A stretch of 64,000 bases of DNA from assembly GCF_000026545.1 (NCBI RefSeq), contig NC_011601.1; one strand, 5' to 3'. The notes beneath the pieces are model-generated. The model was not told the origin of the DNA and ran no database searches. It was given only the letters and a program-made list of their open reading frames with translations. The DNA is from Escherichia coli O127:H6 str. E2348/69 (GTDB lineage Bacteria; Pseudomonadota; Gammaproteobacteria; Enterobacterales; Enterobacteriaceae). Below are positions 29,987 through 30,582 of the stretch, one piece after another; the stretch's first letter is position 1, and each line of letters begins with the position of its first letter. A program made the translations under genes and the position numbers.

Positions 29987-30020
29987 GCTGAAAATGGCGC
30001 TGTAAAAGGCGCCATTTTTT
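29987..30020. terminator. bidirectional rho-independent terminator
   Basis: AATGGCGC-tgtaaaag-GCGCCATT stem followed by TTTTTT, between convergent fdnI and higA-like. Confidence 0.55.
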
Positions 30021-30304
30021 TATTGCGTAACCAGACGGCGCAGTCGCGACACATCCACCGTTTTTTCCGCCTCTGCCAGACTCCAGGCATTTTGCAGATT
30101 CAGCCACATTTGCGGCGAACTGCCGATCACCACGGACAGTTTTATTGCCATTTCTGGCGTCAAAGCTGCTTTTCCGGTCAGCAATCGGCTTGCCGTTGAG
30201 GGCGCAATTTCCATTGCTCTGGCAAACTCGCGCAGGCTGACATTAAGTTCGTCCAGTGATTCCAGAATAATGTCCCCCGGGCGGGGATGATTGGCCATTT
30301 TCAT
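30020..30304 (-). CDS. higA: HigA-like antitoxin (XRE-family HTH)
   Basis: 94 aa; HTH segment ...[38 protein letters not shown]...; directly downstream of and overlapping the toxin gene by 1 nt. Probably the K-12 yddM equivalent. Confidence 0.8.
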
Positions 30305-30582
30305 CAGTGATAGTCCTCGTAATCCAGTATGTATGCATCGCCATTGACGAATTCAAATGTGATTCGCCAGTTGCCCGAGACAGATATCGCCCAAATTCCA
30401 TCGCGATCGCCGCTTAACGGATGTAGTCGGTAACCGGGCATATCGATATCAGCAAGACAGCATGCTGCATCAATCACAGCGAGTCGGTGGCGTAATCGTT
30501 TGACTTGCGTCGGTATAACGCCGGAGGTTTTGCCGAGAAGAAACAAGTCACGCAATCCCTTGTGTCTGAAATTCATTATCAT
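30304..30582 (-). CDS. higB: HigB-like toxin (RelE/ParE superfamily mRNA interferase)
   Basis: 92 aa; [14 protein letters not shown]...[39 protein letters not shown] closely resembles Proteus HigB (...GNWRITFQFINGDAYILNYEDYH, recalled). Confidence 0.8.

Follow-up and report, generated by a model that had tools for sequence, protein, structure and literature searches.

Described HigB/HigA systems

The closest described relative of the pair considered here is HigB-HigA of plasmid Rts1 (Proteus vulgaris), whose structures include the toxin-antitoxin complex (PDB 4MCT/4MCX) and the ribosome-bound state (4YPB/4ZSN). Rts1 HigB depends in vivo on four critical residues, H54, D90, Y91, and H92; its R73 touches the scissile phosphate, and its specificity for adenosine is set by N71, which shapes the adenosine pocket (PMC5027501). 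The Rts1 operators O1 and O2 overlap the -35 and -10 elements, and repression by HigA is ~211-fold (PMC12266136). GraT-GraA of Pseudomonas putida and HigB-HigA of P. aeruginosa (PA4674) resemble the present pair in that the toxin gene comes first and the antitoxin is a helix-turn-helix (HTH) protein; in both, antitoxin dimers bind a promoter bearing repeated palindromes (PMC6987408).

The pair between fdnI and adhP in Escherichia coli is itself already known and is an ordinary, catalogued HigB/HigA toxin-antitoxin pair. It stands in TADB as higBA (TA027334), which is the same locus, in its toxin-bearing form, as TA20 'ParE-2/HigA-2' of the AIEC strain NRG857c, and it also harbors the CFT073 HigA whose structures have been solved (2ICP/2ICT). 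Bustamante and Vidal (2020) reported the pair in NRG857c and CFT073, with the antitoxin alone at this position in HS and K-12 (PMC7232551), and the K-12 protein, YddM, has been examined elsewhere for a possible role as a transcription factor (PMC6237786). Since the pair is annotated by PGAP and present in TADB, and the orphan antitoxin of K-12 was published in 2020, no novelty can be claimed for the module, contrary to what its preliminary description might suggest. A search of the literature found no experiment on this particular toxin, and a 2024 review states that the pair 'remains to be characterized'. Other HigA-linked loci of E. coli are reported to vary between strains as well: at fadH-rlmG the pattern is reciprocal, K-12 and HS carrying a complete higBA and NRG857c and CFT073 only an orphan higA, and at a third locus, TA19, the toxin homologue is a pseudogene in CFT073 and missing in K-12 and HS (PMC7232551).

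With a probability of about 0.85, judged from sequence comparisons, the fdnI-adhP module of E. coli E2348/69 is a type II toxin-antitoxin operon on the chromosome that belongs to the HigB/HigA (Rts1) type and would work much as the Rts1 system does. What the present analysis adds is incremental: a definition of the operator, a promoter layout like that of Rts1, the ancestral synteny, counts of the states of the toxin gene, among them the ST131 frameshift, and a warning about K-12 as an experimental host.

Gene layout of the fdnI-adhP locus

The window, that is, the whole 64,000-nucleotide stretch of DNA that was analyzed, is identified as the pathogenic E. coli strain E2348/69 by a 100% match to NZ_CP059840.2. 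Between fdnI (29316-29969, plus strand) and adhP (30768-31778, minus strand), two open reading frames lie on the minus strand, exactly where the preliminary description had placed a toxin and an antitoxin. The higB-like toxin gene (30304..30582) encodes a protein of 92 aa (WP_000605675.1) and is delimited by its ORF, the match to PF05015, the identity to Rts1 HigB, and the PGAP annotation, in which it is named 'type II toxin-antitoxin system RelE/ParE family toxin'. The higA antitoxin gene yddM (30020..30304) encodes 94 aa (WP_000781364.1), is recognized through TIGR02607, HTH_3, and identity to 2ICP/2ICT, and is named 'yddM, HigA family addiction module antitoxin' in RefSeq/PGAP. The junction of the two genes reads cacTGATGaaa, with a single A common to the TGA stop and the ATG start, which bears out the toxin-first order and the 1-nt overlap described for the pair. 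The toxin gene thus lies upstream of the gene for the HTH-XRE antitoxin, to which it would be coupled in translation, the reversed order typical of HigB systems.

In these respects the locus resembles Rts1, where the genes are likewise toxin-first and overlapping, the toxin also has 92 aa, and HigA is also an XRE-HTH protein. HigA differs in length, with 104 aa in Rts1 and 94 aa here, and the setting differs too: the Rts1 pair is plasmid-borne, whereas that of E2348/69 is chromosomal, fixed beside fdnI and passed on vertically. From the CFT073 and NRG857c pair, by contrast, the only difference is a substitution private to the E2348/69 antitoxin, Q14L; the toxin protein of CFT073 is identical (WP_000605675.1).

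The toxin is a full-length homologue of Rts1 HigB

The toxin matches the Pfam family PF05015 (HigB-like_toxin) with an E-value of 3.8e-17 and 63 bits (cutoff 27), residues 4-92 aligning with profile positions 2-91 of 91, and it carries the C-terminal residues that had been quoted as a HigB hallmark. At E <= 0.01, PF05015 was the sole Pfam family matched, with no ParE family among the hits. The score against the RelE/StbE model TIGR02385 (17.4 bits) falls below the cutoff of 27.9, and the likeness to RelE/StbE, as far as profiles reveal it, is of the superfamily level only. The best match in the PDB is 4MCT_B, HigB of plasmid Rts1 (1.2e-31), to which the toxin is 57% identical without a gap across all 92 residues; a weaker match was found to 6F8S_B ('Putative Killer protein', 5.5e-7). 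Both proteins begin with MI-x-x-F-(K/R)-HKG, and because this start is common to them, the ATG at 30582 is supported as the toxin's initiation codon. All six of the residues H54, N71, R73, D90, Y91, and H92 of Rts1 HigB are identical and equally placed in the toxin. The loss of catalytic residues, which the preliminary description had named as grounds for giving up its assignment, was looked for in the alignment to Rts1 HigB, and the opposite was found, because all six residues are identical and every critical one is kept. The differences fall on non-essential residues of the RNA path, where K57 is replaced by S, R48 by M, and R69 by S.

By analogy with Rts1, the toxin would be a small RelE-fold, ribosome-dependent endoribonuclease that enters the ribosomal A site, where it would cleave mRNA within A-rich codons, with H54 predicted to act as the general base, R73 as the stabilizer of the transition state, and Y91, D90, and H92 on the leaving group. 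Toxicity, RNA cleavage, neutralization by the antitoxin, and operator binding are all expectations for the E2348/69 pair carried over from that system. In a separate comparison, none of the PADLOC-DB models matched the toxin, so the idea of a known anti-phage defence system was rejected; the HTH protein weakly matches a candidate family, PDC-M64B (1.5e-4).

The antitoxin is a HigA with an XRE-type HTH

The XRE-type HTH that had been read from the antitoxin is confirmed by profile and structure matches. The protein scores 92.1 bits (1.5e-26; cutoff 47.7) against the equivalog TIGR02607 antidote_HigA and 1.3e-9 against HTH_3, and it is identical at 93/94 positions to the proteins of 2ICP/2ICT, deposited as 'antitoxin HigA' of E. 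coli CFT073. Identity to Rts1 HigA is 40%, and the matches to GraA (6F8H/6F8S) and to P. aeruginosa HigA (6JPI) range from 5e-11 to 7e-8. A single HigA sequence, WP_000781370.1, is shared by K-12, CFT073, ST131, and E. albertii; it is from this common protein that E2348/69 departs by Q14L (codon 14, window 30263-30265), a position occupied by Gln14 in those four and in every Citrobacter orthologue. As in Rts1, HigA, made from the overlapping downstream ORF, would be a dimeric XRE helix-turn-helix protein that binds HigB and neutralizes it, as in the 4MCT/4MCX complex.

Candidate operators and promoter

A candidate autoregulatory palindrome, which it had been proposed to seek upstream of the toxin gene, is present there in two copies between 30594 and 30641. 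The proximal operator candidate (30594..30612) is a perfect 19-bp TGTTCC-N7-GGAACA palindrome with no mismatch that ends 11 nt 5' of the toxin ATG, and the distal one (30623..30641), TGTTGC-N7-GGAACA on the minus strand, has a single mismatch and overlaps the putative -35 element TTGCGC (30634-30639, minus strand). A putative -10 hexamer, GATAGT (30612..30617, minus strand), lies between the operators, abuts the proximal one, and is separated from the -35 element by a 16-nt spacer; a Shine-Dalgarno-like AAGGA (30590..30594, minus strand), read from the sequence, is found 7 nt 5' of the toxin ATG. The order on the minus strand is thus TGTTGC-GCTGCAC-GGAACA (30641-30623), ATAGTGATAG, TGTTCC-TTTCGAG-GGAACA (30612-30594), AGGATGAAGAG, and ATG. 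A scan with the sigma-70 consensus (29900-30850) returned no promoter at its threshold, and the -35 and -10 elements were assigned by position and conservation alone. In the window, TGTTCC-N7-GGAACA with at most one mismatch occurs at the two hig sites only; three further matches with two mismatches lie within chance (5 found versus 2.6 +/- 1.7 expected).

To follow the conservation of these elements, the equivalent region was aligned from 24 related loci. Spacers and flanks vary freely, and all four half-sites are preserved across Escherichia, Citrobacter, Cedecea, Buttiauxella, Pluralibacter, Enterobacter, Chimaeribacter, and Erwinia; this pattern is a phylogenetic footprint of the candidate sites. 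The distal operator of Chimaeribacter is even a perfect TGTTCC-N7-GGAACA. At the -10-like position, C. gillenii has GATAAT and Chimaeribacter TGcTATACT, and the Shine-Dalgarno-like element reads AAGGA or AGGGA in most of the genera aligned. Through this cross-genus conservation, TGTTCC-N7-GGAACA is now defined as the candidate operator of the module, to which HigA is predicted to bind.

The arrangement has a close counterpart in the Rts1 hig promoter. In both, two 19-bp palindromes stand 29-30 bp apart around (T/G)ATAGT, the -10-like hexamer between the operators being TATAGT in Rts1 and GATAGT here, and the ATG follows the second operator by 11-12 nt (12 in Rts1). The half-sites and their spacing differ, with TATTACAC-N3-GTGTAATA in Rts1 and TGTTCC-N7-GGAACA here; the change from TATTACAC to TGTTCC is expected because the two HigA proteins are only 40% identical. 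GraT-GraA and the P. aeruginosa HigBA, which are far more distant in sequence, differ further, as their operators are TTAAC-GTTAA palindromes at which two dimers encircle one compact 28-bp site. On the Rts1 model, HigA, alone or with HigB, would repress the operon at the two 19-bp operators, which cover the putative -35 and the -10/+1 region.

Hairpins flanking the module

Between yddM and fdnI lies a symmetric hairpin (29991..30018) with a 10-bp stem and an 8-nt loop, whose arms (29991-30000 and 30009-30018) are 100% complementary and which is bordered by an A-run and, at its opposite end, a T-run. The folding energy is -15.9 kcal/mol (z -3.8) for the minus strand and -20.4 kcal/mol (z -3.5) for the plus strand, equaled by none of 200 shuffled sequences; a simple terminator scan missed the hairpin. 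It is probably a bidirectional terminator serving yddM and fdnI, in agreement with the claim that such a terminator separates the module from fdnI. On the other side, a terminator-like hairpin of adhP (30731..30758, minus strand), GCTGCGAC / GTCGCAGC followed by CTGTTTTTCG, separates adhP from the hig promoter; its fold is weak (z only -0.64), and its sequence is conserved in both allele types.

The spacer between fdnI and yddM also varies in length between strains. A unit of ~178 bp, which includes a REP-like palindrome (GCCGGATAAGGCGTTCACGCCGCATCCGGC) as well as a further copy of the terminator hairpin, is absent from E2348/69 (window 29970-30019) and STEC313, occurs once in AF18, and occurs twice in K-12 J53. 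The fdnI-proximal spacer of K-12, unlike that of E2348/69, holds one or two REP-containing inserts.

Strain distribution and decay of the toxin gene

The hig locus between fdnI and adhP is present in 5413 of the 5426 complete E. coli genomes, and toxin DNA is found in 1330 of the 5426, with ~75% lacking it; the suggestion that the intact toxin may be strain-variable is thereby borne out. Intact toxins, identical or nearly so to that of E2348/69, occur in CFT073, Nissle 1917, UM146, F11, and DSM 30083, and at the protein level those of CFT073, Nissle, UM146, and DSM 30083 are the same. About 545 toxin-bearing genomes (~10% of the 5426), including ST131 strains such as JJ1886, have lost 1 nt of the toxin gene at nt 98 (codon 33, corresponding to position 30485 of the window; L005 601-878), a frameshift that cuts the toxin after 35 codons; PGAP marks this toxin as 'frameshifted', and yddM is intact. 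Other lesions are seen in AH21G053, which lacks 17 nt of the gene, and in A3, where a deletion of 9 nt leaves the frame intact.

In MG1655, as the preliminary description had it for K-12, the fdnI-adhP interval holds just the antitoxin gene, yddM (b1477), at a 145-nt spacer from adhP and with no toxin. YddM is the orthologous antitoxin at the same site, separated from that of E2348/69 by 9 synonymous differences and 1 non-synonymous one. From this toxin-less allele (K-12, STEC313), the toxin ORF is gone almost exactly; both operators and the -10-like element are kept, directly 5' of yddM in K-12, and the spacers have diverged. Two alignments disagree on the deletion breakpoints, leaving as the remnant either the 5' leader of the toxin or its last codons, and the sequence that precedes yddM in K-12 has diverged too far for the breakpoints to be placed to the base. 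Given its repeated loss, the toxin is dispensable.

A mosaic of the two allele types was seen in O157:H7 TR01 (NZ_CP033605.1, L054 702-846), in which the spacer between yddM and adhP has 145 nt as in K-12. Its central 29 nt are K-12-like, and the flanking 34 and 45 nt are of the toxin-bearing type, including the last 14 toxin codons. This mosaic is contiguous in 1 of the 5426 genomes and reflects either a rare recombination or an artefact of the assembly.

Synteny and selection

In a synteny scan with HigA as the query and one genome per species, the pair was found to adjoin fdnI in E. albertii, two other Escherichia lineages, eleven Citrobacter species, Pluralibacter, an Enterobacter sp., and 'Enterobacteriaceae bacterium 89'. 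With the fdnI-adjacent pair spread over these genera, presence of the toxin is the ancestral condition, and that of K-12 is derived from it. Both genes give a dN/dS of 0.03-0.11 relative to Citrobacter, where dS is ~1, and within E. coli synonymous differences outnumber non-synonymous ones by 8 to 1 in the toxin gene and by 9 to 1 in yddM. Decay of the toxin extends beyond E. coli to Citrobacter sp. FP75, C. portucalensis, and Xenorhabdus. The history that best explains the locus is that of an old module, inherited vertically in its place next to fdnI, whose toxin has been lost repeatedly through deletion of the whole ORF (K-12 type), frameshift (ST131), and other lesions, with HigA and the operators kept in every case.

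Alternative explanations

The name under which the toxin is filed raises the question of whether it is instead a ParE-type poison of DNA gyrase that is paired with a HigA antitoxin. The AIEC catalogue assigns it to the ParE_toxin superfamily cl21503 and calls it ParE-2 (PMC7232551), and its PGAP name includes 'RelE/ParE family toxin'. These labels go no further than binning at the superfamily level, and in TADB the pair is named higBA; with PF05015 as the only Pfam match, no ParE family at E <= 0.01, 57% gapless identity to the Rts1 endoribonuclease, and the catalytic residues of the RNase kept, a gyrase poison is very improbable. That both ORFs could be chance frames, or could have been annotated wrongly between fdnI and adhP, has a negligible probability, since their small size alone might speak for it; it is already refuted by matches to solved structures and curated families, with E-values of 1e-17 to 1e-56, and by the conservation of the pair across genera at dN/dS far below 1.

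A more serious alternative is that the toxin of E2348/69 is an attenuated or silent remnant and that HigA/YddM is an autonomous transcription factor no longer part of a toxin-antitoxin system. Strains can do without the toxin and have lost it many times, HigA has never been lost and is identical as a protein in toxin-bearing and toxin-less strains, a ChIP-exo and knockout study handled YddM of K-12 as a transcription factor (PMC6237786), and E2348/69 HigA carries the private Q14L, all of which such a remnant would accommodate. Nevertheless, purifying selection acts strongly on intact toxins (dN/dS 0.03-0.11; 8 differences synonymous and 1 non-synonymous), the catalytic residues are all in place, the same toxin protein recurs in E2348/69, CFT073, Nissle, UM146, and DSM 30083, and the 1-nt overlap and the promoter-operator region are intact, so that a remnant is improbable and a HigB/HigA operon of the Rts1 type is preferred.

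Implications for YddM

Beyond correct bookkeeping, the significance of the locus is small. It offers, in any case, a clean natural series of toxin decay in which the antitoxin is kept, from intact through frameshifted (ST131) to deleted (K-12), and TGTTCC-N7-GGAACA is a concrete target for work on YddM in K-12. As K-12 carries a chromosomal antitoxin identical to the cognate one, toxicity tests of HigB need a yddM-deleted host.

More speculatively, the module at fdnI may be unusually old, predating the split of Escherichia, Citrobacter, and Pluralibacter, with HigA and both operators outlasting the toxin under strong purifying selection wherever deletion, frameshift, or truncation removed it, which could point to a host function of HigA/YddM itself; we regard this as tentative and doubtful. 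If true, its role might be 'anti-addiction' immunity against HigB-type toxins of plasmids or the control of other genes, and YddM would be more than a mere leftover.

Plasmid-borne relatives

A plasmid origin of the module was considered and rejected, as all true plasmid relatives share <60% identity with it and no close plasmid copy was found. The single 'plasmid' match at 100% is NZ_CP141085.1 (L008), a 385-kb sequence designated 'plasmid unnamed1' of E. coli KE48. It carries the chromosomal block yddG-fdnGHI-yddM-toxin-adhP-maeA-sra-bdm-osmC-dosP and is probably a mis-assigned fragment of the chromosome.
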